Part shown: positions 3,890 through 47,985 of the stretch, piece after piece
Layout of the letters: each line of letters begins with the position of its first letter
Position numbering within the stretch: the first letter of the stretch is position 1
NCBI GenBank assembly: GCA_965649765.1
Contig: OZ287748.1
Location: 86,490,001 to 86,554,000 of the forward strand
Reading direction: 5' to 3'
DNA: 64,000 nucleotides
Source: Bispira polyomma
Lineage: Eukaryota
Position numbers and translations under genes: made by a program
The notes under the pieces: generated by a model
Told to the model about the DNA's origin: nothing
The model's database searches: none
What the model saw: the letters and a program-made list of their open reading frames with translations, nothing else

Positions 3890-4005
3890 CCTTGGACAAT
3901 GACAATAAAGTGGTGAAGAAGCAGATCCTTGACCTTCTGTCAGCTCTGTGTGTGTACTCCACAGATGGTTACAATGGAGTACTGGATGTACTACAACAGT
4001 ACAAG
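3890..4005 (+). CDS. INF2: Formin exon A (116 nt), DID: (A)LDNDNKVVKKQILDLLSALCVYSTDGYNGVLDVLQQYK
   Basis: Acceptor ttttctag at 3889, donor AAG|gtaaat at 4006; resembles INF2 armadillo/DID segment. Confidence 0.92.
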
Positions 4006-4201
4006 GTAAATCAAATAGGTGACACCTGAACAAAGGTAAATAAAACAGGTGACACCAGTAGCAGGTAAATAAAATAGGTGACACCGGTACGAAGGTGAAA
4101 AAACACCTGATGCTGGTAACAAGGTAAATAAAACAGTTTTCATCGATACCAAGGTAAATAAAATAGGTCACAACAATGCCGAGGTAAATAAAACTGTGAG
4201 A
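3994..4201 (+). repeat. Tandem repeat, 7 x 29-30 bp, spanning exon A donor
   Basis: Consensus CACCAGTACNAAG|GTAAATAAAATAGGTGA; first unit includes the last 12 exon nt. Confidence 0.9.
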
Positions 4202-4689
4202 CAAGTGACTGTATTTTTTAAACATCTTAAGCTCAACTCAGACTCCAGCTCAAATCTAAGCTAAACACATATTTCTGGATAGAGTAAAGATAGGTAAAGT
4301 CTGAATACATATCTTAATTCAGTACCCAAAGCTCAATTAAAATGAATATGTTATTTCCATGTACAGGGAATAATAGATAGCCTTTATTTGAGTCTTTATC
4401 AAGTAGTCAGCTCAATTTAAAGTTTATACAGATACTTACAGTTAAATAGATAAAGATATTTATACTTTATGATATCATACATATTTATAAGACAACAAAA
4501 TAAATATTTGTAGAAAGACCTAATATTTATGTTTAATCTGTGTAGGAGCATTATGTATGTTTTAAACAATCGTGACTTACAAAATCTAAAACTACTTGAG
4601 GTTGTAAACATATTCAAATGAATTGCACGTTAGTGGGCAATGAATGACTCATTGGTTGTGGGGACATGCTTATGGCTAGCATAAGGATA

Positions 4690-5000
4690 ACAATACTAGT
4701 AGACACAAGATCAATTTTCTGTGCAGGAATATGGAGAAAAGTGGTTCAATTAACAAGATTGGAAAGATCAGGTAGGCAACATTAGGTTTATAAGGATAAC
4801 AAACTGAAAGTTCATGCAGATGTTTTGTTCATAGAATTGTTGACACGATCTCAAATTACATGGTGACATTCAAATCACCAGTTATGATTATACAATCTAA
4901 ACCCTTATGGGCGGAAACAAGGCATTTAGAACTTGATGAGAAATTGACTTCTAGAATGTGACAGCACTGGGTTCTTAAAAACCTACACAGAACAGTCAAA
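4690..5000 (-). mobile_element. Degraded LINE APE-endonuclease fragment
   Basis: Reverse strand gives DCIIITGDLNV (4862-4897) and downstream NLVN*TT...KIDLVST, matching the GD(F/L)N and IDL motifs of non-LTR endonucleases; stops and frameshifts present. Confidence 0.6.
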
Positions 5001-8000
5001 TATTGATAGTTGTTAAATGTTGAATGAAACCAATCAGATATCTAAATCAGTATAGTCTACATGCCCGAGGTAGTTAAGGGTGAGGGAATTAATAAAGGAG
5101 GTGGGGAATAGTGCATGAATAATTTTTGATATAAGGCTTAGTCTTTGAGGAGCCTTTTGGTAAAGTCAGTTTACTTGTGCTACCCAATTGAGCATACACG
5201 AAAGCTGGTAGACCAGAAATGGCTATTTAGATGTTCAAACTCTTGGTAAAAGCAATTCCTAATGTTCATTAAACATGTGGGCTTGAATTGCCTGAAGGTG
5301 AGGTAAATGAAAGGGTCCTTTACTCAGCGGGGAGCTTTAAAATGTATTGACAACTTAGAAAATATTGGTCAATGTTGCCCAGTGAAATCTGTTGGTCTGT
5401 CCGTTTTTGTGGGAATTTATTCTACTATAACTTTGAGGATTTTAAGTATTACTTGATATACTGAGACAGATGTTGTGAGGGTGCTGATGAGAGTTCTATA
5501 AAAGAAAAGAAGATAAAATCACTTCAAGGTGACCATAAGGTTATTATAAATGGGGGAGGAGAGTTATACCGGAAAGAGCTACCTCCTAAAAAGGGATGGC
5601 TTTATTTTCGTGTGATTAATGTTAAGGTGTTGATCTTCCTAGATTTCATTTACCATTTGTAAACATAAACAGTCTATAACAAATATAAATAATACACAGC
5701 ACAAATATTAACAACAAAGAGAAAGAGAAGAATTAAGTGTAGATATTAAATTGGTGTCTTGTCTTGGAGTATGGCCAAGCATACTCAGGGGGTGATTTGA
5801 GTACAACATTCTGGTACACATCAAACTCTATTTCTTATTGCACACAATTTGGCACGATGAATATTGACAATGTGTTGAAAACACAGAGCAAGCACTGCAT
5901 ATAAATTAGTTGTATTTCAATAATTGTCCCACTTCTGCTGAAAATAAATCCACCTAAATGTGCATATTAAATCTCACGTACAATGGCCACTTTCCTTTTG
6001 GCTAGTGGATGTTTTTGTGGACATTTATGTATCTATATATTATATAAGACATTTCACCTAATTAATTCTATGTGTGGTCAGATGAAAAGATATTTCTTAT
6101 TACATTAAATACAATATAGATCAATTTACACTGCAGAGTTTCCTATTCTATACAAAGGACCTTATACCCATGCTTTTTATCTTATATCTTCTATTTTCTT
6201 TAACATAGAATTTCTACCTTATTTCAACCTTATACATTGTCATGATGGACAGGTAGAAGTCACATACTTTGACACAAACTAGAAAATTCTGTTTTACTAG
6301 GCATTAACTTTTTTGTCGTTTTTTTTTCTAAAAATAACGAGCTTCAATTGTGTAAATTATTTCCCTGTTAAAATTTAAATTTGTATAAATACTTTCACTA
6401 AAAATTGGCTAATAGTTCATATATAATCCAATTAAAATGTTAATTGTTATATAAGGGAATCTCGCTCTAGCTAAATTTCCACTTAAAATTACAATACATA
6501 AGAGTAGCATATATCAATAATAAAATATGGAGAAATATGTAGCTTCTATTATTCTGCCTGTTACCTGCTTTGATTGCATCAGTATGTTGGTTTCTTTTTA
6601 TGCAGGTAAAATACCTTCATGACCTGTCATGTCAATGTTTATTTATTATCTGAAGTAGTGTTTCCAAAAAGACCAACTCAACCCATTTATTTTCAGATAA
6701 TTTTTTCAAAATCCTTTTTGATCTTTAAAAGTTATAAAACAGAATCAAATGCTTCAACAGGGTCTAATTGTGAAGACATTAAAACCACTTAACCTAATGC
6801 ACCTTGGAGATTCACAAGGCTAATCTGTGGGCCATCCCATGGCAGTTTAAACCCTCTGTTTTCTCATGTGAATCCTTCAACTAGAAAGTGTTTGATAAGC
6901 TATAATTACCCCAAGATCTTCAACATGTCCTTAAGTTTAAACTGTGATATAATTATTGGGCATTGCTTTAAAGAAATGACCAACAAGGCGATGTCATCTG
7001 CAAAATCCCAATCCTATAATTATGGTGGTGTGTTTTTATTTGAATTGAATTTGAGCAATTTGTGTACAAACAAACTTGGACAAGTTAGTCGTTATTATAA
7101 AACTTTATCAGTTTATAGCTATATATTGTATAATATAGTTGCATTCCATAATATCAGTGGAAGACATATACTTACCATTTTTAAAACTGTACAGGGAGTT
7201 AGGAAAATAATTTTGCTTGATTATAAAATGTGGCAAAATACACTCTCTCCAACAAAATATGTTTTACATTCACATCGAAGTCTAAATATCATTTAAAACC
7301 AATTCATTTCCCTCTTCTTCTCTACTGAATGCAAGAGGGGGACAGTGAATGCATAGAAAGTGAAATGTTATTCATAATTCTTGAGGCATATAACTGACAA
7401 TTGTTACTTTTTGATAGACAATTTTATAAAGACTATAGTTATGTCATTCCTGACAGCGGGTGTTTTCAAAGTCTAACAGTATGGGTGCTCTACTTAGCAG
7501 TTTGGAGTAAAACTAATGAAACTGATAGTTGGAGGGGACAGGGAGGGGAGTGTCTCAGGCTGATTGTAGAAAAAAACCCAAAATGCCAAGCTTTATAATT
7601 GACTATAAAATTAGGTTACTTATAGGTAATAGTTGATGTAAGCTTCTTGTTATACTCAATATTCAAGTGTTAATTGATGTATTCAAACACTGCATAAACG
7701 GGTCAACAATCGTTTATGGTCTAATACAATAGAACACACATAGACATGTTTGGAGATTTAAATGCAATCTCCTATTGTATCTATATTCGCAGCATTTAAA
7801 TAGCAATATTCAGTATTTCAACATATACTTAATTTATCTATACCCTTGAATAAAACTTTTTTGGGGGTAAGGGGCAAGCGTACCACAACTTTTTTTACCA
7901 TCAGTTTGGTAGAATATACATGCATGGTACAACAATAAATTTTTGTGATGTACAAAATACATTTTAAAATTCATACTTATATGGTTGAGATTTTATCCAG

Positions 8001-8354
8001 GGCATTAATTTTGAAGGCTGGCTATTAATATAAATGTTTGGAGTCACGACCGAAGTTTGTGGTTTGATGTCCACATACAGTAATTACTACAGTAGTATCT
8101 AACACTATGGCTGTGTATTATATAGCTTTTACAAGTAAACAGTGGTGCACAGATGCACACTCAGCAGCTGGAGTTTTTATTTGGCTCCATATTCAGGTGA
8201 CAAATACTGACAATAACATGTGTAATGGTGACAAATGTGTTGACATACTGACTGAGAACATCATAGTGTAAACAGAGATAGTGGCATATATTGGTATTCA
8301 ACTAGGGACAGAGTACAACCCAGCACTTGTGTTTTAAATGGTTACTATGTGAGT

Positions 8355-8640
8355 AGTCTCGGTGGCCTAGTGGTCAGAGTGTTCGATCAGAAGGTCCAAG
8401 GTTAGATCCTTGCTGCAGACCTGGAGATTGTGCCCTTGGACAAGGTACAAAGTTGTCCCTTTTCACCTATGTGTATAAATAGGTGTTAGTCTTTGGTAAA
8501 GCATGGCCAGTATGCTTCGTGAGGGAGCTGAAGTGAACAATTGGTTGAAAAGGTAAAGAACCCAAGCATAAATGTAAACTGTAAAGTTGGATGAGACCTC
8601 CACTATGGGTGATATCAGATGATAAACCTACACATACTGA
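8355..8640 (+). mobile_element. tRNA-derived CORE-like SINE (family 1)
   Basis: A-box tggcctagtgg, degenerate B-box ggttagatcc, core tgtgcccttggacaaggtac...tgtgtataaat; homologous to 16087 and 38955 copies. Confidence 0.8.
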
Positions 8641-8959
8641 CATTTATAGTCGAGTTTTTAATTAAACATCACAACTGTGAGTAGAAATTTCTACAAATGT
8701 CCATTGTTCATTATTACAAGTTAAAGGTGCTGCTCTACCGCAATAACCAATGGTGTCTGTTTTGATATAAAACACCAAACTCTCTCTTTTAACTCTGACA
8801 GAGATGACATATCTATACATATTTAACTCTAAGAAGAACACAGTTGTCCTTCACTGACACTAGAAGATTTCTAGTTTGAGACTCTAGTTCAAAAAGATAC
8901 ATAAAGATTGATGGTCAGCTGTACTTGAACAGTCAAGAACAGATTACCAAATAAACGAT

Positions 8960-9290
8960 CATAAGTATAAATATGAAGACCACACAGCAATACAATATAC
9001 TTGATATAGTTCTTCGTGGCCCTTGCTGGTGTTGTGGGTTAGTATTTTGACCCTGGGAAAGTTACCAGTAGACTTGCTAAAGGCTGGGTATTTGCAAAGC
9101 AGAAAATTTAAAACCAACTGCCCTGAACTGATTTCCTCCAGTAAACTGTCCGCCAGGATGTGACATAATCTAATCAAATCAATTCCATAATGGCGCTTAC
9201 TCTCCGTACTAGAAGATTCTAAGGAGCAACAATCACAATCATTGTTCAGTAGTCGTGATGTGGTAGATGGAAGAGAGGGTATGACATAAG
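8960..9290 (-). mobile_element. Possible degraded LINE RT remnants
   Basis: Minus-strand translation contains STTSRLL, HYGI and YCIAVWS, in the order expected for CR1/L2-group RT motifs but heavily deleted. Confidence 0.4.
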
Positions 9291-12200
9291 ACATGCTAAA
9301 AGTGACACTTAAATTCAAAATTAAAACTAAACTAAACTGAACACTAAAACTCTGTCAATGTCAAACCTCCATGACTGTTTTGTGTAAGTGGATTATTTGA
9401 ACATTAAGGGAGTCCCTGCTATAAACACACCAGTGAGAGCAGATGACATTTGGAGACATGGAGTTAAAACAATGGCTGTCTGTATATGTCACACATACCA
9501 GAGCCTTGTTTTTGGAGTTTGATGTTGTGATGTTTCACCTGAGGCAGACAATGTACTGCCGCCAAGAGATGGCTCTTTTTGAAGTGATCACGTGATTATG
9601 ATATGACGTCATTGACCTCGTCAAAATCATACTTGGCCATCAGAAACAGACAAAATGACATGCCAGCATTTTTTACCATTACCAAGACCAGTGGCTCGTG
9701 TCTGTACAGTTAAAGTGTCAGCATATCTGAAAAGTCCAATGGAATATTTAAATGACAAATAGAATCTAAGACAAAAACAAATTTAAATGTTGGTGCATGT
9801 GTACAGAGCTTATTTTATACTAAGGGTGTAATAATAAATTGATGTATCAAGTTGTTTTACAAAAACAATATATTGCAATACCAAATTGGAAAAGCAATAC
9901 TTATTGGCATATGATTTTCAAAGTAGATAGTAAAATCTCTGAATATCGCCCACCTTTTTATATTCTAGAAGTTCAGTCTGAAAGAGTAGAAGATATTTGT
10001 CAGGGGTGAAATAAAGCAAAAAGCAATAGATGCAATCTATAATAACTAAATTAATGTATGTAGTACTGTGTACCTTCTTCCAAGATCACTGCTTCACTTT
10101 ATTTTACAGCTAGACAGATGGCATATAACCTAAAATATGTTAATTCAAACATATTTTACCATACGAAAACTTGGACACACAAAACCTAAAATCCCAGTTA
10201 ATACCAGTCAGTCAGTCTTGTTTTTTTTAAGATTGCTTGTGAGTGTATTGTTAAAATATATTACTACAAGACATATCATGGTTAATTTAATTGCCAAAGA
10301 GTTATCTATAATGAAAATAAGCCAGCTTACTCATATCCCCACACCTCTTATTTTTCATCATTTATTGGAAAACTAATATAAATATATTACTCATATTTAA
10401 CATTCAATGAATATATTTTTCTATACATGGTGTGTAGCTTTGTTTGTAAGCAAGAGATACACTATACAATCATTTTACAGGTGATCCAGAAAATTACTTC
10501 CTACTTCAATTTATGACTTATAAGCCTTTCCTTGGGCCTAGACAATAGAGTCACTGCCTTAGAAACTCTAACAAAAGCACCTGAGAAGAAATCAGTTGTA
10601 TTTTTTGTAATACAAATGGCTTGTGTTTGGACAGAAATACAAGCTGCACCACCCACGTTAAGTCCATTGTCTGGATAAAGCACTTTTTCTCAGTAAACCA
10701 CAATTATTAAAATTAAGACATCTCCGTGCTATTTTGTACGAATAGTGCACCGAACTACCCATTACTTTCTGCCAAGTTAACTCTTGATCTTTACCTAAGT
10801 TAAATTGGACATAAGGCCTGTTGTTACAGACTTCTTACTATAAAGAAAAGCCCTGCAAGTATCACAGTCTAGTTGTATAGGAATTGCAGCTGAAGTGGAA
10901 AATATGATTGTTCAGCGACATATAAAAAGCATTTGACAACACGCGAAAGTTTAGTGTGGCCTCAACTATTGTTAAAATCTTTGTGTTATTAAATATGATG
11001 ACCATATTATCATAATACATGTATATGTATGCAGAAAGAATGAAAGTATGAGTATCATTAATATTTTTTGGGACAAACCCAAGAAAGCTTCAATTTGCTA
11101 AAATCTGTGTATTTGTTTATTAAACTGTTAACTGTTGGTAATATTAAAGCAGTATATGATTTATTTATGACAAGACTTTTATCTTTTCATACCACTTTAT
11201 TAAACATTATAATTGTCTGTGGGGACTTAAAATAAAAACAACTCTGAATTAGTTTACTAGTTATTTAACCAGTAGATAAAAATCTGTTACTAGAAATGAT
11301 TTTGGAACTGGTGCTTATTATGTCAGTAAAATAAAAACGAAAATGTAATACATGTAGATATATCAACGTTATTTAAATATAGACATCGGTATATAATCAT
11401 ACAGACGTTCTAGTTATGACGTTATTTGAAATGATTACGACTGTGTGATTTTGACACCACACATATGAACCACGTTGATTCATAAGGTCTGGCCTAAAAC
11501 ATTTATATACGTAGAAAAAAAGTTATTAGATTTGTGGCTAACTTTATACAAACACCAGTTTGAAAAGGTTAATGTCAGATTAAACAGCATATTATCAATT
11601 GTTTACCTACAGCTGTGCTCTGGCTTATTTAACTGATGAGTCTCTTTTGATATCATCTATTTATAATGTACACAGTAGGCAAACCGTATCAAAGGCCTTG
11701 TGCAAATTAAGTGAGAAAATTGCCTTGGGCTGGATGGGAAGCCGTTGAAACATGTATATCCAAAAGTGATCCATGATACTATACTATCCAAACCACAAAC
11801 CTAAATACTCCCTCTAAATCAATATTTAATTTAGTGCAAGCACTACCAACACACCAACTGATTAGACGTCACCTCTGGTTTATTGCTAACAGAGTAAGTA
11901 ATCTGATATCTCTTAGCCTAATCCCTTAAACTTTAACCAACAAAATCTTGTTTTATTTGCATTATTTTGATGTTACCATGGCCTAGTTACACAAAAACAA
12001 CAATTCCTGAAAAAGTCCCATAAAAATTTCCATATAAAATACAGACAACTTTAGATGTAATATATAGTTACTTTTATTACCTATTGGTTAAACGGATATG
12101 TATGAGAGATCTAAGATTAATATAGAGGTAGGTAGTTTCAAGTTTGTATTTTATAGTTTAACTTGAAAGTGTTAACAAATTTGGTTTTTATTATTAAGTT

Positions 12201-13387
12201 AATAAATGTTGTTCATTTATGTAAATGGAAAAAGTGGATTTGTTTCGATAATTTAATTAAATTAATTTAGAAATACGTAAAATAGAGCAAGACTGCTATG
12301 TCCATGGATTTTATCCAGTAAACATATGTCTTCTACCAAAACATAGCCACAGTAAATGATCACTTTAAATACAAAGACTGACACATAGGCAATATTTGCA
12401 AAGGAAGAAATATGCAACACTTAACATGGAATTTGGTGTGCAATTCTTTAGCAATTGGCGTGAAATGTGCCGTGATGTGAAGGATTCCTTACAGTCTAAT
12501 GCAACAACAATAACATATCCTTAACCTGACGTGTCTTTAATGCTATTATATTTCAGGGGCCAGCATTAACAGTTTTTACACATGCAGATTATGTGTTACA
12601 TATTTTTGCATTCTTTACATAAATACCCAGTGTTTATATATGGCAATATAATGAGGCAACAGTAAAGCATGCCTTTCACTTGGATAAACAGTGTGGTAAT
12701 TAAATTGACCCCCCAAACTAATGGTATTTACTAAGAATCATCAATTTAAGTTAACCTTTCAAGACAGGTATTCCACACAGTTCTTTTTTTCTGTTATGGT
12801 GGCATTTATTGTTTGTAACTCTTAGAATGCAAAAAAAAAATCCTCTCTTTTGGGATTTTGTGTCACCAAAACTTAGCATATTTAAGTTGACTGGTTGAAG
12901 AATCTGATAATCTGAGAAATATCTGGGTTTAGGTCAAAACTTTGCTGTTTAAATGAAATAACATTGTAACAATCGAAACCAGATGAATCTTATTGTATTA
13001 TTTTGTCCTGTTATAAAATGTTCAAATAAACCATATGTTGTTCATTGAGGTAGTGGAAGAACTTTTCCTAATTTTTATACTTTGTCTTTATGTTCAACAA
13101 TGACCGAAATCTACACTCCTGAACAACTTCAGTATTCCTTTCATTCTCCTGGTAACACCATAATGGTCATTGGGAGATGACATCCTGAAGATGCTAACAT
13201 GCCATTGCCTACAGATGATGACCAGTTAGCTATGTATTTTGATGATTATTAATGGTTTTAGCGATTTTGATATTACGCTTTAGAAGATAGCTGGCATCAA
13301 CAAAGTGTGTTAAAAAAGGAATACATTACAAATATATATTTATATCTACACATTCATTTACATAGAACTATATATTGTATATCGTAG

Positions 13388-13547
13388 GAGTCAAAGAAAT
13401 GCCGCTACCGCTTTAGTCCTCTGGTGGAAGAACTTCGAGATGCTGAGACCGTAGACTATAGGACCACCTTGTTGTCCCTCATCAACTGTATCATCATAAC
13501 TACAGAGATCCTAGAGGAGCGTATACGTATACGCAATGAGTTCATAG
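13388..13547 (+). CDS. INF2: Formin exon B (160 nt), DID: ESKKCRYRFSPLVEELRDAETVDYRTTLLSLINCIIITTEILEERIRIRNEFI(G)
   Basis: Not in ORF track. Acceptor atcgtag at 13387, donor G|gtatgt at 13548; phase 0 in, phase 1 out; YRF...L..IN...R..IRNEF formin FH3/DID motif. Confidence 0.93.
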
Positions 13548-20898: not shown

Positions 20899-20932
20899 GC
20901 TTGAAGCTAGCTGAAGTGCTGAACAACATCAG
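20899..20932 (+). CDS. INF2: Formin exon C (34-nt microexon): (G)LKLAEVLNNI(R)
   Basis: Acceptor catttcag at 20898, donor AG|gttggt at 20933; phase 1 in, phase 2 out, exactly bridging exons B and D; similar to INF2 GLQLLDVLARLR. Confidence 0.88.
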
Positions 20933-22563
20933 GTTGGTGTTTTTAATCACCATACTTTTTATTTGTCTTTGAAAATCTGAGATATGATCTACATATAAGA
21001 TCAACCTGAATCATAATAGTGCATCTAAAAAAAGTGTAGGCTTTGTAAAACTGTACAATTGTTGATTTCCAAATATAGATTAAAAATGATGATGCATGCT
21101 TCAATTTGTTTTTATTAAAAGATCACTGTTAAAATAAATAGATATACAAACATAAGCAAAATCTACAATGACAATACCTACAATTTTAGAACTAATCAGA
21201 ATCAAGTTAAGAGTAAACCTAACTTAGACATAAAAAAGGCCTTTGATAGCGTTCAACTTCTCCATTGTATCGTATATTTTTTTCAACCTTTCTGTTCGTT
21301 CTGCTATTCTATCTTCACGAGAGGTCTCTTGTAAAAGTATTAACATAAATAGGCCCCTTTAACTTGCTTGTCTGCAGAACTGACATTTTCTATTTAATTA
21401 TGAAAAAAAAGTATATATGTATATGGTTGATGATCATCATACACTGTTTTATATACATATGTATTTATACGTTGAAGTCACCGTTAAATATAATATGTAT
21501 GTCTGAGTTTTATGATGCAAATGATTAACCACAGCGTGACCTGAGCTAAACTTTGAATGATTAAAGTTATGGCAATAGTTGGTTCGCCTAATTATGAGAT
21601 CACACTGTGGTAGAAGCAATTGGTGGGTTTTTGCTCTTGATGTGATTTTTATGTCTTTGTAAAAATCTTTTTGTAAAAAAAAAACAAAAAAAAACTTAAC
21701 CATAATATTGACAATTATGGGTGATGTGTATTTTTATTTATTATTTGTACATCCAAATAATAAGGATATCCCATGCCTCTATGCTTGTTTGCTGAAAGCA
21801 ACCAGTAATTTATCCAATTTGACCAATTTCTATACATCCAAAGTGCATGTGTACATGTATATTAGATCTACAGTGTAGAGGTGTATATATTTGATAGGCT
21901 TCAACATTTTTCTGTGTGACCATTATTATATGATGATTTTTCAGTGGGAAATTACACAATCAAAAAACCAATCATGTGATTTATCTGTGTGAAATGTCAA
22001 TACAAAATTTCTCAGAATTTTTTTTTTTGAAAAGGATAAATTATGAACCACACTGAATATTTGTATATAAAATATACACGTCAGTCCTGTTATGACATTA
22101 ACACGTTTTCAATTAGACCAGATAGACCATGAAATAAATGATTAATTCATAGAGATAACAAAATATAGCCTCAACAAGCTAATGTCAAATATGAACTTCT
22201 AAGGGTTGCCTGTGCTTGGCTTTTCAGTTACAAAGTAAACAAAATTTAGTTCAAAATAGTCGAAGGACCAAAGGAATGAAAATGTAACCAACTTGTAAGA
22301 TCATCATAAAATGGTTCTTGGTAACATTTTTTTTACTACTTTTAAACATTTTATATTTTTCAGTAAATTTGTCTTTTAAAATGTGACCATCGCAACAATA
22401 GTATACTACAGGAAACAGTTAAAAGGATATACCTTTATTCATTTATTGGACATAATTGCTGTTTTCATTGATAAAGTTGACCATTATAGAAATCTTCAGG
22501 CCCCACAAAAAAGATTGCTCAATATATACTGGTACTTTGATTAGGCCAGAATCTTAACCATAA

Positions 22564-23006
22564 GTGAGCGTTTCCATGCAGGCAACTTTCTGAGGCGACC
22601 AGCCGACGTATAGCAGGCAATTTTCAATTTTTATGTTTCTATACAATTATTTGAGAAAATAGATACCTGCATTTAAACCTGAATATCTCAGCCATTTCTC
22701 AACCAATTTTGATGCAACAAAAAGCACAATATACCCGATAACATAAGCTTTCTCACCATATTTTCACAATATTTATACCTTCAGTATTTTTTGAGTTATT
22801 TAAATAAAACGGCAATGTTTACAAGGCGACGGGCAATGCCAGGCGATTTTTTTCGCTCCTAGTACCGAAAAAATCGCCTGGCATTGCCTGTCGCCTATCG
22901 GCGTTGCTCACATGGAAACACTTGGTTATAAATCAATGAAACTGATAGAATCGCCGTCGGCCGTCGCCTGATCGCCTCAGAAAGTTGCCTGCATGGAAAC
23001 GCTCAC
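22564..23006. mobile_element. PIF/Harbinger-type MITE, 443 bp
   Basis: ~45-bp nearly perfect TIRs (GTGAGCGTTTCCATGCAGGCAACTTTCTGAGGCGA...), TAA target-site duplication at 22561-63 and 23007-09. Confidence 0.9.
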
Positions 23007-23653
23007 TAAGGAAGTTATATTGTAAGGACAGAAAGATTGACCATCTTCACATGCTAAATTGCAAAAATGATTTAATTTCCAAGTCTCTATATAAAAAATC
23101 TAAAATATGTTTGGGTGTTTCTCTAATGTCACGATTATTCTATAATAAACATTTTCAATATTTCATGTTATGGTGACCCATTGACACTATCATATCACAA
23201 CACTTAGGATGTTATAACTGGTCTGGCTTTGTCTTAGTTACATATCCCTGGCAAAATGTATTTGCTATTTTACATCATAAAGTAGTTTACCGGCGGGTTT
23301 TTCTGTTAAACATAATGTGCTCGTACAAGTTCTGGCTAAGATATTTTGCAAACTGTTTTTTTTTTCTTTGGTTTTAAAGCCTCTGGCTTCTTAAATCCAG
23401 AACATACATGAGCTCATTATGGAAACTTGTTGGAACCTTACTGTACATGTCACTAAAAAAACTACTGAACAGATTTATATGAAAATTAATTAAGGGAAGG
23501 ATCAACTAAGGATTTGGTTAAAACGGCGGATCTATAATTTTTGTTTTACTTTTTAGCATTCGTTGGTTTTACACCAGTAAGTGCTTTCTGCACATATGTT
23601 TAACTGTTTCACTTTCCTGGTATTTGCCATGCCAAAAATGCTGCTATTACTTA

Positions 23654-28111: not shown

Positions 28112-28143
<32 letters not shown>
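28112..28143. repeat. (AT)n microsatellite
   Basis: About 16 AT units. Confidence 0.95.
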
Positions 28144-28145
<2 letters not shown>

Positions 28146-36409: not shown

Positions 36410-36597
36410 TATGTTAACCTCTATAATATGAACATGTTTGGAGAGCCATATTTTGTTTTGTATAATAGAAGATTCACAACACATAAGAGGCAGTTATCTA
36501 TAAAAATAATAGTAAAATATACATTTAAGACAGTGAAAGTGAGTTCATAAAATCTAATATTTGGATAATAGAAGTTCAGATAATAGAGGTTTTACTG
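36410..36597. mobile_element. pogo/Tigger-type MITE, degenerate left end
   Basis: aacctctataatatgaac ... gttcagataatagaggttttactg|ta; same family as 58550-58733. Confidence 0.65.
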
Positions 36598-36907
36598 TAT
36601 ACACAATGTGAATATGAAAGCAGAAAAAGCAAATCATGCTTCATGTAGCTGAAGCAATACAGTATAATAACAAACCAAATAAAGTATGTTGGACTCAACG
36701 TTTAGGCGATGGTCAACCACCAGTGACTCTTTATGTTGGTACCTGGTCACCATCACTGTTCTGTTTTTGCAGAAGTAAGGATGCTTTTTATAAGGGACAG
36801 AAAAGTATGACTGGGTGTTAAGGACCCAAATAACATGGAAACTCAAAAATTACAGCAATACTAGCATGCTCTAATGAAATTAACTAAATATAAATACATC
36901 AATAATT

Positions 36908-37150
36908 AATTTAGTTTTAATTTGGGTTTAACGTCGCTTTCAATATGTTTAGTGTCATACCATGATGGGAGGTTACTGGTAGATGAAATCAGAAAGGGCA
37001 GTTGATAAAGGTTTTCTGTAATGCAAACTACCACCCTTTAGCAAGTCTTCTGCCAACTTTACTTCCCACATACACGCCAGGGCCGAGATTTAAACCCATG
37101 AAATGCAGAGGTGGGAGGCGAGTGTGTTACCACTAAATCACAGTGGCCCC
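36908..37150 (-). mobile_element. tRNA-derived SINE family 2, near full length
   Basis: Reverse strand ggggccactgtgatttagtggtaacacactcgcc...gggtttaaatctc...gacttgctaaaggg...ttgaaagcgacgttaaacccaaa. Confidence 0.82.
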
Positions 37151-37954
37151 CACATCAATTATAAAATAACGGTCTTTTAACAAAGTTTGAGCCCCAAGCC
37201 TGGCTGTTTTGTTTAGTCCAATTCAATGGATCCAGGCGTGAATAGAAATACATGTAAGTTCTTATCCTAGAAATCAAGAACAGGCCGTGCAAATGTCACT
37301 GCTATAAAAATGTGTAGTGTGTGTGTGTGTAATTTCTGAATAGTCTAGAATTCTGGCGCATGTGTGTGTGTGTGTATGTGTGTGTACATGGCAGGAAGTG
37401 TTTGGCTAGGATATGTTATAAAACTTTTCGAAAATCTGTGCTTATTTTTAAAATATAGCTTGTATTAAGGATATATATACTGGTTAACAGAGGTAGTAAA
37501 TCAAGATACCACCATAACATGATAAAAACTATTATTAAAAAGGAATGATGTAAAAATAATTTTTAAATAAATGTTCGGATTGTATGGTAACAGAAATTTA
37601 AACTATATCCTTGTTTAATGTCAATTTAAAAAACAAACAAATTGAAAGTATTATGGATATACATGTAGTTATAGCAACTAGGATGTTGTAAAACTACATA
37701 CATTGTATATATTATTACAAGACTGGGCCTGTTTCCTGGTTTGATAAACATATATTCTCTCTCTATATAATGTACAGTCGAAACTCTTTAAGTAGAAGTC
37801 TATGTTAAATCACTTTACACAGGGGTTTGACTGTTTATAACACAATTACACAAAGTTACACTATGAATTAACACTATAAAGGAACATTTCGCCAAATAAG
37901 GAGAAAAGTCTAATTTACCAAAATAACTCTGGTTGTGTTTTTGTGTCTTTCCAG

Positions 37955-38099
37955 AAAATCCGATCCTGGAGACTCTGACCTGACTGTCCAGTTGGACGTG
38001 TTTGACCAGTGGAAAGCTAACGATGATGAACAGCTGCCCGGGGCAGACGGAGTGGACTTAAACAGCCATCTGGACGTATTCCATGCCATTATAAAGCAG
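37955..38099 (+). CDS. INF2: Formin exon D (145 nt): KSDPGDSDLTVQLDVFDQWKANDDEQLPGADGVDLNSHLDVFHAIIKQ
   Basis: Acceptor tctttccag at 37954, donor CAG|gttagt at 38100; DLxxQLDVF and GVDLNSH motifs of DID end/dimerisation region. Confidence 0.92.
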
Positions 38100-38301
38100 G
38101 TTAGTCTACTTATATATATACAGGGGTGATAGGTTCTGGATGTATTGCATGCTATTATTAAGTAGGTGAGTCCACTTATTATAAAGGGGTGACAGGTTAT
38201 GGCGGTATTCCATGCCATTATCAAGCAGGTAAGTCCAGTTGTATACAGGTGTGATAAGTTCTGGATGTATTTCATACTATTATCAAGAACATGAGTTCAC
38301 T
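38070..38301 (+). repeat. Tandem repeat, ~3.6 x 62-66 bp, spanning exon D donor
   Basis: Units start at 38070, 38136, 38199, 38261: CTGGAYGTATTCCATGCCATTATNAAGCAG|GTNAGTCCACTT...GGTGAYAGGTT. Confidence 0.92.
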
Positions 38302-38954
38302 CAATAAGGATTATTAGCGAAAAATTGCTCAGCATTGGTTGACAGGCTGTAAATAAATTAGAAAACATAGATAAAGCAGTCGATTCTAACGAACAAAATA
38401 GACCAGAAAATCAAACGCATGGAAACACAACAATCTGCTGCTATCTGGCTACCATTAGTCTGCTACATGGAAACATTGGCATATGAATGTTGAAGATGGT
38501 CAAATCTGACATAGAGTACAGAGAGCTGATGAGTGATACCATAAGTGATACTATAAGGATGCAGTGTGGTTGTGACCACATCCTTCCCCACTAACCAATG
38601 TTTAGCATGTCTGCACGCCATAGATCATCTAAATGGAGGGACATTAAAGGACCTAAATGATTTCAAGATAGTGGTTTGAAAATAAACATAAAATACACAA
38701 GGTGAAACACTCAAGTGGTATTGACTGGCAAAATAAATATGGTTTCATTGTTATAAATAGCACCACACCTTTTCTGGTGCCACAAATCATGAACTCAACT
38801 TATATTTAAATCTTTGTACTGTAAAACTTCTATTTTCTCAATTTTCCATTTCCAAATATTCACCTTTTAAAAACTTAATTCTCAACGCACCTGTCATATG
38901 TTATGAACATTTTATTAGGGGTTGTTCCTATATTGTCAACTTTGGATCTGAAAG

Positions 38955-39255
38955 ATCTTAGGGCAACGGTTCGACCCTTGCTGCTGGCCTGGTGATTGTA
39001 GCCTTGGACAAAGTACTTTACACAAAGTTGTCCCTCTTTTCTAACCATGTGTATAAATGGGTACCTAGCCGCTAATGGGTGCTGGTCTTTGTGCGCCGTA
39101 TGTGGCAGCATGGCCAGAATGCTACCCGAGGGAGCTGAGACTGAACAAATGGTTGACAAGTGGAAGAACCCAGGCTGGGGTAATAATGTCAAAGCACATT
39201 CGATAACAGTGATGTTCACAACTGTGATGTATCAAATAAATAATAATAATTATTA
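38955..39255 (+). mobile_element. CORE-like SINE (family 1) with (AAT)n tail
   Basis: ggttcgaccc B-box, ccttggacaaagtacttt...tgtgtataaatgggtacc, agcatggccagaatgct...gagggagctga, tail aataaataataataat. Confidence 0.82.
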
Positions 39256-40750
39256 CTATGTGTATTTCATAGAATATAACAGTTAAAATAGTTAAGATAG
39301 AATCAAAACTTTATGTGTGATCTAAATCAGTATTTATGGTTAGTTCACCTTTCGTCTCCAAAGAGGTTATTTTTCTCACCATTATCCATGTATGAGGTTT
39401 GTGTTTGTCACCAGGATTATGTAAAAACTACTTTTGTGTTGAGGGATTGTGGGATGGGGGCAATGTTAGGCCAAGTCTCAAAATCCATTACAGTTTGGAC
39501 TGATTCTGGCCAGCTAGAAGGGCGGATCCATGAATTTTTGAGTTTTTCATTTTTTGTTGTTACTGTGGCACCTTTGCAGAGGGAAGCACTCTTCAGAGTG
39601 CCTTTCTGGTTTTAAATATTTAATATTTTCCATTGCTTTTGGTCTTGGTATTAATTCCTCAAGTTCTGTTTTTACAATTTCAAAAATTATGTTTAAAATA
39701 TCCAATAGCTTAAATTACTCTGACATAGTATGTATGGCCATTTGATGAATTTTCTATTGTCCCATATATTATATCCTATTTTCATTGTTATTTTGGTTAA
39801 TATAGAGAGGTTTATTTATATAGGGTCATGTGACCAATTAAATTGGATTTAAAAAAGGGACACATCTAATTAGGCTCTACCACAGTAAACATATCATATG
39901 CCACTCTGTGATGCACAGTAAAGTAACGTGAGCCTCACTTTCACTAAACAGATTAAAAATAATATTTCATCGCACATACAAACCAATGCCCAACAGCTAC
40001 ACAATATTATGATATTAATACCGGGGTACTCTACAAAAACCCCAGTGAACTAGAAAATCTAAAAACTAGCCTTTTAAAAATAGTTTAAATTATATGAAAA
40101 AAACAATGTATGTCAAGTTATTAAAGATAGGTAGAATGAATTGGTTAGCTTTTGGATTTTTTTTATGGATAACATCATCACACGTATTAAGCATGTCTTA
40201 TCTGGCTTGAAGGGTATATAGGTTTCCCCTTATTATTGTAAAATCTAAAATTTCAAAAATCTATATATGTAGAGTATCACTGTGGGGTCAGTAATATATG
40301 TAAGGAAAGATAAGTTAGGGGACATTTTGATTCAAATAATAAATATCTTCCGCCCTTGCAGTAATAAACTCTGTAAATACACACATATATACTGGTCTAC
40401 ATAATTTATCATCATATCAATAACATACATGAGGCTTCAAAATTAGTTAAACAAACAGTATTTGCAAAATTTATAACCCAAAAACCCCCAAGCAATTTCC
40501 TCCTTGATATGGTCTGTAACCTTATATGTTAAGAGGTTTCTTAACTGAAGTACATGTACTGTACATGTATATAAATTATTATCAGTGGGAATTTTTAGGC
40601 GAAATAAAAATTTTACTGATGTCATCATTTTATTTCTAATAAAGGAATTTATTTTCAACATTAGTCCTAATGATATCATGTTTAAATAAAGATTTAATGT
40701 TTTTAATAAATATTAATTTTCACATTTAGTCACTTACCCAACTCTGTAAC

Positions 40751-40930
40751 TAACAAGAGTTATTATGTAAAAAAGACACATGCACACCCAGTACGTGAAA
40801 TACACTAAAGTTGATATGGCCAATGTATGCTCAGGCAAATCTGACACCCCTCAGGTTGGATGGGTCGATTTCTTCTAAACAATCCATGAAAAGGCCTTAA
40901 ACATTATTTCTAAGATGGCGACACCTTTTT
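40751..40930 (+). repeat. ~170-180-bp repeat, inverted partner of 42387-42550
   Basis: taacaag...cgtgaaata...ttgatatggcca...ttatttctaagatggcg matches the reverse complement of 42387-42550. Confidence 0.8.
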
Positions 40931-41439
40931 TAATGTCAGTGCCCTTTCCAGAATGAAAACAGCATCAGGCTGCGCCTGATAAAAGTAGCCTGTAAACTAA
41001 ATTCCTAGTGTAACTGTCCACTTATAAATAGAGTAATTTAACAAGCTGGACAAGGTGTGAAGTATGTCAAGATTAGGTCAAGTGTAGTAATAAAGAGTTG
41101 AGTAGTTAAGTTAGTATGTAAAAACATGTGCTGATTTAATGGGTCAAAAGTCAACCACAACTATGAAGGAAAACAAAAAAAAACCCAAACACCGCTCTCA
41201 TTAACAATTGTTCTAGTCATCAAATGATTGTCATAATAAATTAAGAGTTTTATTACCTCGTGAACCAAACCCCCCAGCAAGTGTATTATGTACACATTGG
41301 GGTCACATCTTGTAATATTATTACTGTACATGATTGTTATTAGAAAAAAAAGAAATAGGAAAAGTATTTATATAACATGTAGCAAAGAAGGTTTCTGCAC
41401 GTTTTATTGGTATATTGATATATAAATCACATAACCTGT

Positions 41440-41640
41440 CTTTTAATCGAACCAATGTTCAAATCTCTGGTTCTGGCATGCATTTGTGGAAAAGTTGACA
41501 GTAGACTTGCTGAAGGCCAGTAGTTTTAGAGTACAGAAATGTTGACCAACTACCCTCTACTCTCTACTCATTTCCTCTATTAGTAAAACTGGCATTAGTG
41601 ATAGTATAATACACAGGTGTTTGGAAGCGACCTTAAACAT
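41440..41640 (+). mobile_element. SINE family 2, 5'-truncated
   Basis: tgttcaaatctc...tgtggaaaagttgacagtagacttgctgaaggcc...gaagcgaccttaaac. Confidence 0.72.
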
Positions 41641-41848
41641 TGACTACAGTATAACCTGTATTATGAAAACCACTATTATCTTAATATTTGATTTGATAAA
41701 CTCTTTTCTACTTTCCTAATTTTCTGTTTTTTCTAATTGCCTAATGTTTTATACAGAAATGCCTACTCTATTTTATATTTGATGAAACTTCGATTATCAC
41801 ACCAATGATTACACTGTATTTGTAATGATGATCTCAATACAAATGTTT

Positions 41849-42075
41849 GGATTAATAATCTAATCTAATCAAACTTTTATGGCGCTCAATCTCCATTTTA
41901 GTGGCTTCTAAGGCGCATGTATCATTATTGTATTCAAGTATTGAAACATTCTTTAACGAAAGGTGGTCGTATCCATGGATACACCGAAATGAATATGTAA
42001 CTAGGAATGAATTAAAAGCCTTGGCAAACAAGTATGTCTTTAATTTTGCTTTTAAAAATAACAGATGTCCTACAC
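41849..42075 (-). mobile_element. L2-clade LINE 3' end
   Basis: Minus strand encodes KAKLKTYLFAKAF (typical ORF2 terminus), then gcgcctt...gagcgccataaaag and a (GATTA)n tail. Confidence 0.75.
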
Positions 42076-42386
42076 AGTAAATCAAAACTAACTTTAAGTT
42101 CTTTCTGTGCAGTGTGTGATGTAATGGTGCAGTTGTCAGTAGATGACAGATTAGCCCCACTTCACCAGGGCACAGCTTCCTTCTTCACATTCCCCACTTA
42201 GTAGCCATTCAGACTGGGGGAGAAGTTCATGTGTCTGTCTGTACAGCCACCATATCCTTTGACATACACAATCTAGCCTTGTGGAAGCTCTAGATTCCTT
42301 CATAAGCTGGAACCCCCACCCCACAAAAAAAAAAAAATTCTTTATTTTTACTTTAGTGAATTTTTTCTGATATTGTTTTTTTTTCT

Positions 42387-42550
42387 GAAAAGGGAGCCGC
42401 CATCTTAGAAATAATATGTAAGGCTCTCATGAACTGGTTAGAAGCATTCGATTCGTCCAAAATGGCGTGCTTGAGTATATAGTGGCCATATCAATGTTCG
42501 TATATTTCACGCTTTGCGCCTGTATTTTTTTAAAAAGATTACCCTTGTTA
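42387..42550 (-). repeat. Inverted partner of the 40751-40930 repeat
   Basis: cgccatcttagaaataa...tggccatatcaa...tatttcacg...cttgtta. Confidence 0.8.
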
Positions 42551-43339
42551 TGTAAAGTAATACATGTACTTGTTTTTGTTATTGTTTATGTATGTATAGA
42601 GTAGAGATTCTATTATCCAAACATGTTGAGCTGAACCACTGTGTTTAGTTAAAATCTTAGTAATTTATTTAAAGTTTATAAATTCCTAAATTCTAAACTC
42701 ACAATGGATAAGTTTGTCCTGAAGTGTAGGTATTTCAATTTGCGCCTTAGTAAGGCTTGATGTGACTTAATCCTCTGTGATGGTTGTTAAAAACTGTCTT
42801 CAATGACATTGATACAGGGCTCTTGTGTCTGCATTTATAGAGCTATAGATTTAAACTGATCAAACCTGTAAACACACATACTGTATTCTCTCTAATAAAC
42901 AGCCCTGAGTTTTCCAAAAAAAGGGGCTATTGTTAAAGAAAACAATGTTCATTTATGGTGGTGATACGTATCGTTAATAAAAATCATAGTAATTTGTATT
43001 AAGCCATTAAACTTCCCAAAGAATGTTTGGATGCTATGAAATTTCGATGCTGACCTGCATTATCATACAATTGTCCGATATAAATTGTTATTTGCCATTT
43101 TGAGACCGATATCAGTTTTGAAGCGGCCATGGTGAGTAAAAATACACAATAACAGCAAATAGAGATACTACTAACCTTTCGATATATTACCAGGGAAAAC
43201 AGGTGGCCATTTGGAAACCGCCATTGGCCGTTTCGAAATGTAAATCACTAATATAACATCTTCAACTCTGGCTTGAAGGAGGGCTTATAATCGTTTACTA
43301 GGGGAAACAGAATCTCAGTCTGCGATACCAGAAAACGGA

Positions 43340-43402
43340 TGTTATACCTTCTCTGTTGCAGTGCCAACCCTATGGAACAATTTACTAGACAATATAAGAT
43401 CC
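43340..43402 (+). mobile_element. L2/CR1 LINE ORF2 C-terminal fragment
   Basis: Translates YTFSVAVPTLWNNLLDNIRS (FSVA.P.LWN.LP motif). Confidence 0.7.
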
Positions 43403-45038
43403 AAGAAGATATATAAGATCTCTTCACCCCCGCTTACCCTCTCTTGACATCTCTTTTCTCCACATTACCTCCCCGATCACAAATTTGCATTGGAAACAGA
43501 CTACAGACTACAATTTTACCAATTTTGTCAAAGGTGTTGCACTGTAGAAGATGCCTGGCATCAAATTAGGCACATTAAAAATCTATCATCCCATATCATT
43601 TGCATTATATTTTAGTGTAGAACCTGCTGAAATATTGGCAATTTTAGTGATCATCTAAGTTATTCTTTGAATTTCTGTGAGGGGGGGTATAATTACTCGG
43701 GGGGGGGGGGGGGGCTTTATTATGGAAAATACTGTACATATATATATATATATCTTCACCATATATATATTGTATAATGAAAGAGAAGAAGATAGGAGTT
43801 TAGATAACTCTTAGAAAAGAGATCTTAACGTCTTCTTGTTGTGGCGCATTCATAGCTCACACAGTGGTACTTGCTTCTTATAAACCCTGCTTAATTGTCA
43901 ATTATACACATTGAGATAGGGTAAAAGCAATAGACAAGTACTATTCTCTAAACCCCCCTTCTTTTCTTAGTTAATTTTTTTTTCATTTTAGTTTGGATAG
44001 GGTTTGTTTTTTTCTGATATAGATATTATGGACCACCTACAAAACTTAAACCACAATGACTTTTTTGTAGGGGGCGATGAATAGAGGGTTTCTTTTATTT
44101 ATGTATTCAGTCTTTTTTTAGAAATATTTTTATTTATAGTATATAGTAAACTGTGAATCAAGAACGGGGAGTTTAAATTGGAATTTTCCTTAAAACTTTT
44201 TTTTGGTTGTTGTTTTTTTGTAAGAGGACAAAAAAAGAAAGAAGTAAATATTGTTTTGAGATTTTGGCCTCATGTACACATAAATTTTTTTTGTACCATG
44301 TGTCTTTTTGCATTTAAAAGTAGATATTATGTAGAATAAATATTCATATATTTGCCCCTAACATATTATTTACGATTTTTTTTAGATTATGGTACGCTCA
44401 CTTACAAAAGCATTTAACACTATTTAAATTGAAGGCTTTGAATATTTTTAGCTCAATTTAGCTGATATGGTTGGCAAAGCTATTAATCTATTTCCATTTT
44501 GTTATCATATACCAAAAATCTGTTTGTTTCATTAAAGTGTATAAATCTCCGTAAGGTATTTGACTAATAGAGGTTAATCTCTGTTTATTTTCCTCCAAAT
44601 GGTTCTGTATTCATGAACCTTTTAAAGCTTAATTTCAGTGTTACTCCAAGTATACCCCAAATTTACCCTTTTCAAGGTAGATATTTATCTCATATATGTA
44701 TATACATATATATGTTGGGGAGAGGCTGCCATACTTAGGATCCTAAGTTGGGCTATAGATAGAAATATAATATTGACAAAATTGGAAGTTGGACTGCAAC
44801 ATATATACAGTACATGTATAAAAACCATAACTGAAAATATTTCCATACTTTGTGGCTAAGGAATTTAATTATAAAAAATCATCCGAATTAATTTATGTTG
44901 TTAAATCATAGAGGTACAATCTCAACATCATTAGATGTTATTTAAAGATGAATTGTATACTTATTCTTTTGAGAATATATGGCCCCTGGTTCTGTTTGAG
45001 AAATGACACTTAATTCCCTATTGTGTATATTTTTTCAG

Positions 45039-45914
45039 GTGATTGACACCCCTCAGGAAGTCCCATTTCTTGCCACACTACAGCATTTCCTGCAAATAGA
45101 ACCCTCGGATCCCCTCAGTGACACCATCTGGGAGACCATCGAGAAGGTCATCTACCGCGCCACCCTACTGGAGAAGCCCGAAGATTCCGAGAAGTTGATC
45201 ATCGGCAGTCAGAAGAGATTCGACAAGGCCATCTCTCAGAAGCAGTGCGAGAACTGCCACTGTCAGTGCCATGACGAACAAGAGGCTCGACTGAGAAGAG
45301 AAAGCCTCCAGGCACAGTTTTCCCCTACATCGCCTTCTTTAAGACATAGGGATATCACAGGCATGAGTCCAGGACCCTCTACACCACTTTCTACCATGGT
45401 TCCTGTGATGATACCGGTAGAAGGGGCAGCATCACCGGTTGGACCACCACCACCAGCTCCTCCAATGACTGGGGTTCCTGCCCCTCCTCCTCCCCCGCCA
45501 CCTCCTCCGCCTCCCCCGGCACCTCCAATTGTAGAAGGAGTAGGGGGGATACCTCCACCCCCACCCCCGCCACCACCACCAATGGGAGGACCTCCACCGC
45601 CTCCACCCCCTCCAGGAGGAATTAGCAACACACACACTCCAACAACAGTCAAACTACCTCAGCAGCAAACCCCTACGCCCAAGTCAAAGATGAGGAAACT
45701 CCAGTGGAACAAGATCCCGGCGATAAAAGTCATTGGGGGAGGCAACAACCTCTGGAAAAACGTGGGCAAGATGTTCACCGATGTCAGTGTGAACTTTGAT
45801 CAAATGGAAGAACTTTTCGCCGTGAAGTCTTCTTCGAAGGCAAAGGATAAAGAACCAGTGGATGAAAGTGGTGCCACTACACCTGTGACTGAGAGGAAGA
45901 AGAAATCTGAGGTG
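45039..45914 (+). CDS. INF2: Formin exon E (876 nt): dimerisation region, FH1 poly-proline, start of FH2
   Basis: Acceptor tttttcag at 45038, donor GTG|gtaagt at 45915; 292 codons within ORF 45003..46094; PPPPPPP tracts then KMRKLQWNKI. Confidence 0.95.
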
Positions 45915-46392
45915 GTAAGTTGTCAGTTATTTATCAGTCAGAGACTTGGTAATGGTACAAACAGATGTAAAGAGGTAGAGATTGTAAATTATGAGATATA
46001 TAGCTCAAAATTCTGCAATTTGTATGATCAGACAAAATCGGCTACAACAAGTGGCACTCTTTTGGGCAGGTTGTATCAACGTTTTATTGAGTAAACTTCC
46101 TGATGATGTTAATGAGGTTGCTGCTGGTTATAATTGATTGTATTTAAATATTTTACATGTTACTTTGAATAAATAATAATTATAATGAAATGATGATATC
46201 TGTTACCTCTGCATCAACCACTTCAATGGTATTCTTTGTTATATTTTGTCTGACGCTATGCCTGTCACCGTACTAAGTTGTACGAATCACATTGACTTAC
46301 AAGTCTTTATCATTTCAGGTTTAAAGATGTATATATGTAATAATCATAGTTATATAGCTGAGTAGTTTGACTGTTTGTCTTATTCTTTACAG

Positions 46393-46557
46393 ATAAATCT
46401 TCTTGACTCCAAGAAGAGCTTGAATGTGAACATCTTCCTGAGACAGTTTAGAATCCCCGTCTCTGAAGTCATTGGTCATCTGGCTAAGGGTGAGAGTGAG
46501 AAAATAGGTGCAGAGAAGCTGAAAAGTCTGATGAAAATCTTACCAGAAAATGATGAT
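46393..46557 (+). CDS. INF2: Formin exon F (165 nt), FH2: INLLDSKKSLNVNIFLRQF...LPENDD
   Basis: Acceptor ctttacag at 46392, donor GAT|gtaagt at 46558. Confidence 0.95.
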
Positions 46558-46619
46558 GTAAGTTACCACCGCTTACAAATGATATTCTTGGTACATATAT
46601 CCTAACTTGTACTGTTCTC

Positions 46620-46790
46620 TAACCGAGCAACATTGGTTTATTGTACACTGGAGGGAGTTCAGTCATCCATTGGTAACACACTTGTATAAACTCATCACCA
46701 ATTTCACCTGTTCTGATTTCCTCCACCGCTGAACTTCCCATTGTGATATGAGACAAATGTGTTGAAGCAATGTTTAACGTTAACTAAATC
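46620..46790 (+). mobile_element. SINE family 2, degenerate 3' part
   Basis: ttctgatttcctccacc...gtgttgaagcaatgtttaac...aactaaa. Confidence 0.5.
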
Positions 46791-47040
46791 TTAAATAGAG
46801 AGAGACAGCTTAGTTTGGGTGCATGATTAGTATGCACAATGTTCTGGTTTTGAAATAAATACCTAAAACCGATGTGGCATGATTTTAGTGCAAAATAGTA
46901 TTTTTTGTTTTACAAAAGTTTAAATTGAGAATTAAACATATTAATTATTGAAATTACATTTAATTAGTCTTATAGTAATGCATTACAAGGCATGTAAATG
47001 ATATCACAGTAACATTAGCATGTGTGACCATTGATTTCAG

Positions 47041-47129
47041 ATTGAGATGCTTAGAACCTTCACTGGTGACAAATCAAAACTGGGGACTGCAGAGGTTTTT
47101 TACTTGCAAGTATTGGAAGAACTTCCAAA
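47041..47129 (+). CDS. INF2: Formin exon G (89 nt), FH2: IEMLRTFTGDKSKLGTAEVFYLQVLEELP(N)
   Basis: Not in ORF track. Acceptor gatttcag at 47040, donor AA|gtgagt at 47130; LG.AE.F FH2 motif. Confidence 0.93.
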
Positions 47130-47719
47130 GTGAGTGCACATTACAACTCTAGGTATTAATTAATCGACCGTAAATTTAGTGGAAGTAACTTCCCTAGCGT
47201 ACTTTTACATGGTTTCGTACTTGCTTCCGATGCTATAGTGCTGAGTGGGTGGGGGTGGGGGATTTGATGGATAGTGGAGCAATTCCTTTCAGTAATCAGA
47301 GAAAGACTCCTGAGAGATTTTTAAAGCAATAGACCAAAATAGTTACTGGACTGCTCCAAATAGTGGACTCTCCCAACTTAACAACTAGATTTGACTAGAT
47401 ATCTGAGTGTAGTAACTGGAGAAATGAGAGAATATTATGGGCTGTTGTAAGACTAGGAGGCTTTGACCTTTAAGAGCATGGGATTTATGCCTACTTGACA
47501 CGGGCTGGTATTCATAAAAAGTCTTTGTCGTAAATTTTTGTGTCAAGCAATTTGAATCTGATTGGCTGAGATTAAAAAAAACGAAGAATGTTTGTAAGTA
47601 TACTGTCCCGGATGCTATTCCAACAATAATTTAAGTTTACTTTTTCATGCACATAGTGGATGTTTATCTGATCACTTTTTAAAGTTTTTAAGCTAATTTT
47701 GATATCTCTGACCAAAACT

Positions 47720-47985
47720 GGTGTGATAATGTACTCATATATATACATTGTCCCTTTACAAGGTAGTGTAGCTTATTTTTGTGTCATATTTCACACATAT
47801 ATATTTTATTTTCCCCTACACCCTCTACTGTAGCTATAAGGTGGGAATAGAAGCTATATACTGCTGACAGCTGATGTTTTGGATCAGTGACTGATTGGTG
47901 TTATATTGTACACCTTTATATTATTGTCTCTACACCATGTATTGTAGCTACAAGGTGAGAATAGAAGCTATGTTGATGAAGGAAG
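47720..47985 (+). repeat. Tandem duplication (~114 bp, plus a truncated third copy) spanning exon H acceptor
   Basis: ctacaccctctactgtag|ctataaggtgggaatagaagctat (AG at 47832-33) versus ctacaccatgtattgtag|ctacaaggtgagaatagaagctat (AG at 47946-47). Confidence 0.88.

Follow-up and report, generated by a model that had tools for sequence, protein, structure and literature searches.

The formin locus and its exon edges

The window analysed here is a stretch of 64,000 nucleotides from Bispira polyomma (assembly GCA_965649765.1, contig OZ287748.1, positions 86,490,001 to 86,554,000), and it holds most of a formin gene in which several exon edges are repeated in tandem into the neighbouring intron. 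The gene lies on the + strand at window positions 3890–55552 (all coordinates below are window positions) and has 12 coding exons with 23 junctions. Its 5' end lies upstream of the window, and no convincing match to further formin exons was found in the preceding 10 kb. The joined exons form a single open frame of 1999 amino acids with an FH2 domain, whose product we take to be an INF2/FHDC1-like inverted formin. The closest of seven homologs is an annelid protein (67%), with mollusc proteins at 54–59%. Tblastn searches with six homologs back 11 of the 12 exons, the exception being the 34-nt exon 3.

3890–4005, + strand: formin exon 1
13388–13547, + strand: formin exon 2
20899–20932, + strand: formin exon 3 (34 nt, without tblastn support)
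37955–38099, + strand: formin exon 4
45039–45914, + strand: formin exon 5
46393–46557, + strand: formin exon 6
47041–47129, + strand: formin exon 7
47948–48119, + strand: formin exon 8
48995–49291, + strand: formin exon 9
49921–50085, + strand: formin exon 10
50622–50727, + strand: formin exon 11
51879–55552, + strand: formin exon 12 (low-complexity last exon)

The initial annotation had reported three arrays, with periods of about 30, 64 and 114 bp, at 3 of the 23 junctions. Arrays were detected with an ungapped self-match score that gave essentially zero hits on shuffled DNA, and its threshold was passed by exactly three of the 23 junctions, with all copies on the intron side. The arrays are thus real and their count was right, while the period of about 114 bp describes only one pair of copies in the third array, whose spacings are 114 and 62 nt. 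The list was incomplete in that it missed a weak 17-bp two-copy repeat at donor 50085, a candidate fourth array that could be of chance origin. The four features, in part as reported by Tandem Repeats Finder (TRF), are as follows.

3993–4193, + strand: array 1; TRF period 30, 6.8 copies, 74% matches; spans the donor at 4005
38069–38301, + strand: array 2; TRF period 63, 3.7 copies, 77%; spans the donor at 38099
47719–47971, + strand: array 3; from self-alignment; at the acceptor before 47948 (1.6 bits)
50083–50115, + strand: 17-bp two-copy repeat; TRF score 50; at the donor at 50085, below the self-match threshold

The unit of array 1, of about 30 bp, comprises some 13 nt of the exon end and the start of the intron, and the first unit carries an in-frame stop. 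The real donor after 4005 scores 9.3 bits; decoy donors follow after 4035, 4064, 4094, 4123, 4153 and 4183, score 6.9–10.3 bits and all keep AG/GT. Array 2 is built from about 30 nt of exon end plus the start of the intron, again with an in-frame stop in the first unit. Its real donor after 38099 (9.9 bits) is followed by decoys after 38165 (9.7) and 38228 (13.8), both with GT, and by a last one after 38290 that has lost it and reads AT, so that GT is retained in 8 of the 9 donor decoys of the two arrays. Array 3 lacks a regular head-to-tail order and goes unreported by TRF at score 40, yet it is real by self-alignment: positions 47778–47857 match 47895–47971 at 80% over 80 nt, and 47719–47773 match 47896–47949 at 76% over 55 nt. 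The nearer copy, 114 nt upstream of the acceptor, contains 24 exon bases, scores 3.1 bits and leads to a stop; the farther copy, another 62 nt upstream, is more diverged, with 2 exon bases and a score of -3.3 bits. In the 17-bp doublet, the decoy after 50102 scores 6.9 bits versus 11.5 for the real donor, and its use would shift the frame.

Two decoys of the window outscore their real site. Use of any decoy would lead to a stop or a frameshift, and only the exon-proximal sites yield an open frame matching the homologs. Copies within the arrays are 65–84% alike. An assembly artefact, named in the initial annotation as a possible undoing of its proposal, was rejected, as contigs from all three of three runs bridge every array with zero differing letters; these contigs come from one study with at most two samples and are possibly the source of the assembly itself. 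No length variant of the window arrays was seen in these contigs, which drop rare variants. Few comparable arrays lie elsewhere in the introns of the window, as had been stated: the background amounts to 0.55–0.67% of 42,364 bases, against which 3 of 23 junctions gives p = 3.7e-4.

As judged from their anatomy, which is already known from amphioxus, the formin arrays are 'mirage' minisatellites. Available portions of the amphioxus reports describe mirages in Adh3, the globins BflGb6 and BflGb9, troponin C and PGBD5 (PMC3087553, PMC3902484) and call their origin unclear.

Exon 8, next to array 3, combines a weak acceptor (1.6 bits) with a strong donor-like site (10.4 bits) 7 nt further on, at 47948–47960, which outscores the real donor of this exon (5.8) and is also retained in a decoy copy of array 3 (8.8 bits, 47834–47846). 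This arrangement might represent a 7-nt microexon or a recursive site. The last exon contains a 60-bp in-frame coding repeat at 52689–52926 (4 copies, 93%). An intronic two-copy duplication at 51305–51567 has a spacing of 160 and 92% identity; its first copy ends with a pyrimidine tract and AG, and it is tied to no modelled exon.

Junction arrays in dynein and myosin genes

Junctions elsewhere in the genome were modelled by homology in two multi-exon families, which make up the sample. The dynein set covers 16 of roughly 20 dynein heavy chain genes and holds 489 introns; a junction was accepted when three or more of the 10 reference proteins supported it, and 419 of the 473 exons in between were frame-consistent. 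The myosin set holds 86 introns in 11 genes, with a consistent frame in 60 of 75 exons. On the intron side, a copy spanning the junction was found at 71 of 489 dynein donors and 73 of 489 acceptors, and no junction had copies on the exon side only. Arrays are present at 144 of 978 dynein junctions and 20 of 172 myosin junctions, together 164 of 1150 (~14%). In the dyneins their signal peaks within ~20 nt of the junction, and 144 of the 329 arrays of dynein introns are junction-anchored.

Intron positions within a terminal unit make up 3.6% in the dyneins (junction excess p ~1e-21), and the corresponding myosin background is 2.7% (p = 3e-7). The initial annotation had conceded that a high repeat density could account for the overlaps by chance, and the dynein genes argue otherwise, with 144 arrays seen versus 28 expected on collapsed intron length, a ratio of 5.2 (gene bootstrap 3.4–7.1), and counts above expectation in 15 of 16 genes. 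GC-matched expectations of 17.6 and 16.3 (34 in all) give an excess of ~4-fold. The ratio is conservative in one respect, because missed small exons would raise the background. The link between arrays and junctions is real and genome-wide, beyond chance. The formin gene is ordinary for this genome, since its rate of 3/23 (13%) matches the normal junction rate of 164/1150 elsewhere (Fisher p = 1.0), and the density of arrays that had appeared to single it out does not.

Arrays at both ends of one intron or exon did not co-occur significantly (p = 0.21 and 0.43). Repeat load differs strongly between regions of the genome, with local duplications occupying ~17% of dynein intron bases versus 1–2% in the window and near single-exon G-protein-coupled receptor (GPCR) genes.

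Copy number and turnover

The enrichment at junctions increases with copy number, from 2.9x for two copies to 6.8x for 3–4 and 9.4x for at least five. Near-identical two-copy pairs (at least 97%) numbered 5 versus 2.6 expected, a 1.9x excess that is not significant (p = 0.13). Clean fresh duplications amount to only 4 at junctions versus 22 in introns, too few for an analysis of breakpoint microhomology. Copies closer to the exon look more alike, and intronic controls share a similar bias, which stems from probe choice. Identity classes (2.2x, 6.9x, 9.7x and 7.3x) were set aside as an age clock, because arrays become homogenised and differ in length at divergences of no more than 2%.

One myosin region exists in three copies that are 98–99% identical and lie on different chromosomes (contigs C8, C11 and C13). 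One donor array has 24, 12 and 17 units in these copies and another has 7, 12 and 12, so that junction arrays are labile, with rapid copy-number change among near-identical paralogs. Among 24 length differences between the paralogs, those at junction arrays comprise one expansion and one gain or collapse, and no clear birth of a new array at a junction was found. The region is very dense in junction arrays; its C13 copy is partial and lacks a further 437 bases.

Decoy splice sites and sequence motifs

Most decoys in the dynein genes are intact, with GT in 88% of 274 copies and AG in 90% of 146. This retention is near that of exon codon positions 1–2 within the same copies, and the AG of acceptor decoys is no better retained than neighbouring positions. 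Of the intact decoys, 53 outscore the real site and 157 score below it, and 88 of the 96 nearest ones would give a stop or a frameshift. On this basis the decoys look neutral and are probably silent. Exon-proximal sites are used in the human F7 intron 7 variable number tandem repeat (VNTR; PMC1557585), in minigenes under exon definition (PMC9225289) and, by RT-PCR, in amphioxus, where mirages leave splicing undisturbed (PMC3087553), according to the accessible parts of these reports.

Of 185 purely intronic arrays, 15 had splice-like motifs in sense and 13 in antisense orientation, which amounts to no strand bias. A DNA word of the AGGT type that would drive duplication was rejected as well, none standing out among 4–6-mers when these 185 arrays were compared with 3700 GC-matched windows.

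Arrays on stop codons

Two arrays span a stop codon, one in a GPCR gene (locus L225) and one at the end of a dynein gene (L142). Each has 4 copies, with units of 50 and 48 bp that consist of ~41 coding bases, the stop and 6–9 bases of untranslated region. These arrays share the build of mirages and need no splice site for it. With 2 of 15 dynein stop calls excluded as doubtful, arrays were found at 2 of 34 stops versus 0.45 expected (p = 0.08), an underpowered comparison.

Other features of the window

Visual inspection showed long terminal inverted repeats at ~22563–23007 and 48140–48330 that resemble small non-autonomous DNA transposons, and the region 48140–48330 is high-copy. An open reading frame of 243 amino acids at 63134–63865, on the minus strand, gave no Pfam match.

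Discussion

The initial annotation had placed the arrays in an already recognised class of tandem duplication; the class is indeed known, but it is that of the amphioxus mirages, which had gone unnamed. As far as the available amphioxus accounts go, the likeness extends to a tandem unit that joins an exon edge to the adjoining intron edge (arrays 1–3, with array 3 irregular), to extra copies that are intronic and sit at either boundary (two donors and one acceptor in the formin gene), and to AG/GT being kept in many but not all copies (8/9 in the formin gene; 88% and 90% in the dyneins). Amphioxus units measure 10–160 bp and are unstable in copy number, an instability seen here in other arrays (24/12/17 units). 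In contrast to what these accounts describe, the host is a lophotrochozoan, the copies are more diverged (65–84%), rate and enrichment were measured on 1150 junctions rather than in single genes, and an equal build occurs at two stop codons; splicing in amphioxus was followed by RT-PCR, whereas here the exon-proximal site is presumed to be used from the reading frame. The 37-bp VNTR of human F7 intron 7 (PMC1557585) resembles arrays 1 and 2 in that its first unit lies over the exon–intron boundary and pseudo-donors follow the real one; in the available part of that paper it is a single locus whose pseudo-donors are experimentally silent by upstream-first selection, while silence is predicted here. 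Intron gain by tandem duplication of AG/GT (the Rogers model, PMC3265369, as far as available) likewise involves a duplication that carries splice signals, but there a proto-splice site inside an exon is duplicated to give a new intron, whereas existing junctions are copied here. No new intron or exon made from duplicated units was found in the window, where decoys give stops or frameshifts and the exons on either side show no insertion when aligned to homologs. A literature search covering few subscription journals found no genome-wide mirage count and no report of annelid mirages.

The explanation that we favour, with a probability of roughly 0.55, is that these are mirage-type minisatellites, about 5x over chance at junctions, in which arrays pinned to coding sequence persist and re-amplify, with decoys predicted to be silent. 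Short tandem duplication is very active in this genome, and the copy number of junction arrays shifts rapidly. Duplications confined to an exon, or spanning all of it, would be purged, while those across one edge would survive because the exon-adjacent site gets used. The spread into the intron only, to which the initial annotation had drawn attention, is seen but would need no special cause: given use of the exon-adjacent site, only outward copies keep the frame, and an exon-side copy or use of an outer site would break it. The pinned unit would be undeletable, and the array may be longer-lived and grow again through slippage or unequal exchange; two-copy duplications show a modest excess, many-copy arrays a large one. 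The birth rate at coding edges is possibly also modestly raised. Decoys would be neutral, their rare use feeding nonsense-mediated decay (NMD). Taken together, the copy-number trend, the lability of the arrays, the lack of motif or strand bias and the stop-codon arrays favour persistence with re-amplification, although this analysis separates persistence from birth only imperfectly.

Several observations count against persistence with re-amplification. Two-copy arrays are already in excess at junctions (52 versus 18 expected, p = 8.5e-11), which persistence explains only in part. Few large deletions separate the myosin paralogs, and pinning therefore counts only if arrays are long-lived. Stop and start edges, mostly at repeat-poor GPCR loci, carry arrays at 2 of 54 versus 164 of 1150 junctions (p = 0.025). 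Array-bearing donors are stronger (9.9 versus 8.8 bits, p = 0.003) and acceptors with a G at +1 bear more arrays (p = 0.034, one of several tests), both of which hint at a splice-site component; the GT of donor decoys is kept slightly more than exon positions (0.96 versus 0.91, 40 sites, p = 0.014).

A possible but unlikely source of the excess is a DNA-level hotspot at coding edges that raises births and fires repeatedly with no need of splicing, for example repair or recombination that begins in a conserved exon and slips at the limit of allelic homology, or replication errors phased by nucleosomes on exons. The symmetry of donors and acceptors (71 versus 73 in the dyneins), the stop-codon arrays and the 2.9x excess already present at two copies would all suit it, as would the different exon breakpoints of the array 3 copies, which repeated independent events would be expected to leave, and the occurrence of the known cases in amphioxus, which is reported to be highly polymorphic (PMC13577491). 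However, the youngest two-copy class is without significant enrichment, and clean fresh duplications at junctions are only 4, versus 22 in introns.

Somewhat less probable is a mutational process coupled to splicing or transcription, in which pausing, R-loops or germline spliceosome-linked breaks create duplications at splice sites. This proposal of the initial annotation has points in its favour: the peak at the junction is narrow, stronger donors bear more arrays, and stop and start edges have a lower rate. It is disfavoured by the symmetry of donors and acceptors, by an enrichment that follows copy number more than birth, by the identical anatomy at two stop codons, by splice motifs without sense-strand bias in intronic arrays and by the lack of an outstanding AGGT-type word after GC matching.

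We regard it as very improbable that selection retains the decoys to act as NMD switches or to modulate splicing, the other proposal made at the outset. All six decoys of array 1 keep AG/GT, but these copies were chosen by that motif; donor GT shows a slight excess of retention, and one array 2 decoy outscores its real donor. Against this, decoys decay at about the pace of unconstrained copies, acceptor AG is not better kept, intact decoys are mostly weaker than the real site, the nearest ones break the frame in 88 of 96 cases, near-identical paralogs differ two-fold in copy number, and published mirages leave splicing undisturbed, as far as the available text goes (PMC3087553). That the arrays reflect assembly error, or fell on junctions by chance in a genome rich in repeats, is hardly credible: the formin figure of 3/23 gives only p = 0.045 against a dynein/myosin intron background of ~3.5%, but the excess reaches p ~1e-21 in the dyneins and 3e-7 in the myosins, and copies 65–84% alike are bridged by exact contigs.

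The value of these results lies in figures at the level of the genome, namely a 4–5-fold excess at junctions, arrays at 14% of junctions, growth of the excess with copy number and counterparts at stop codons, which make origin versus persistence of arrays directly testable. Decoy sites of such arrays can also mislead gene annotation. More tentatively, mirages may be a general effect of coding edges rather than of splice sites, any border at which essential DNA meets free DNA (donor, acceptor or stop codon) seeding or sheltering outward-growing arrays; this idea, which we hold at less than even odds, would apply where the minisatellites of a genome turn over very actively. If it is true, decoy splice sites would lie at about one in seven junctions, and close to half of the arrays in introns would be pinned to exons. 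It would then answer how mirages arise, and would make a single genome the source of thousands of natural experiments on splice-site choice.

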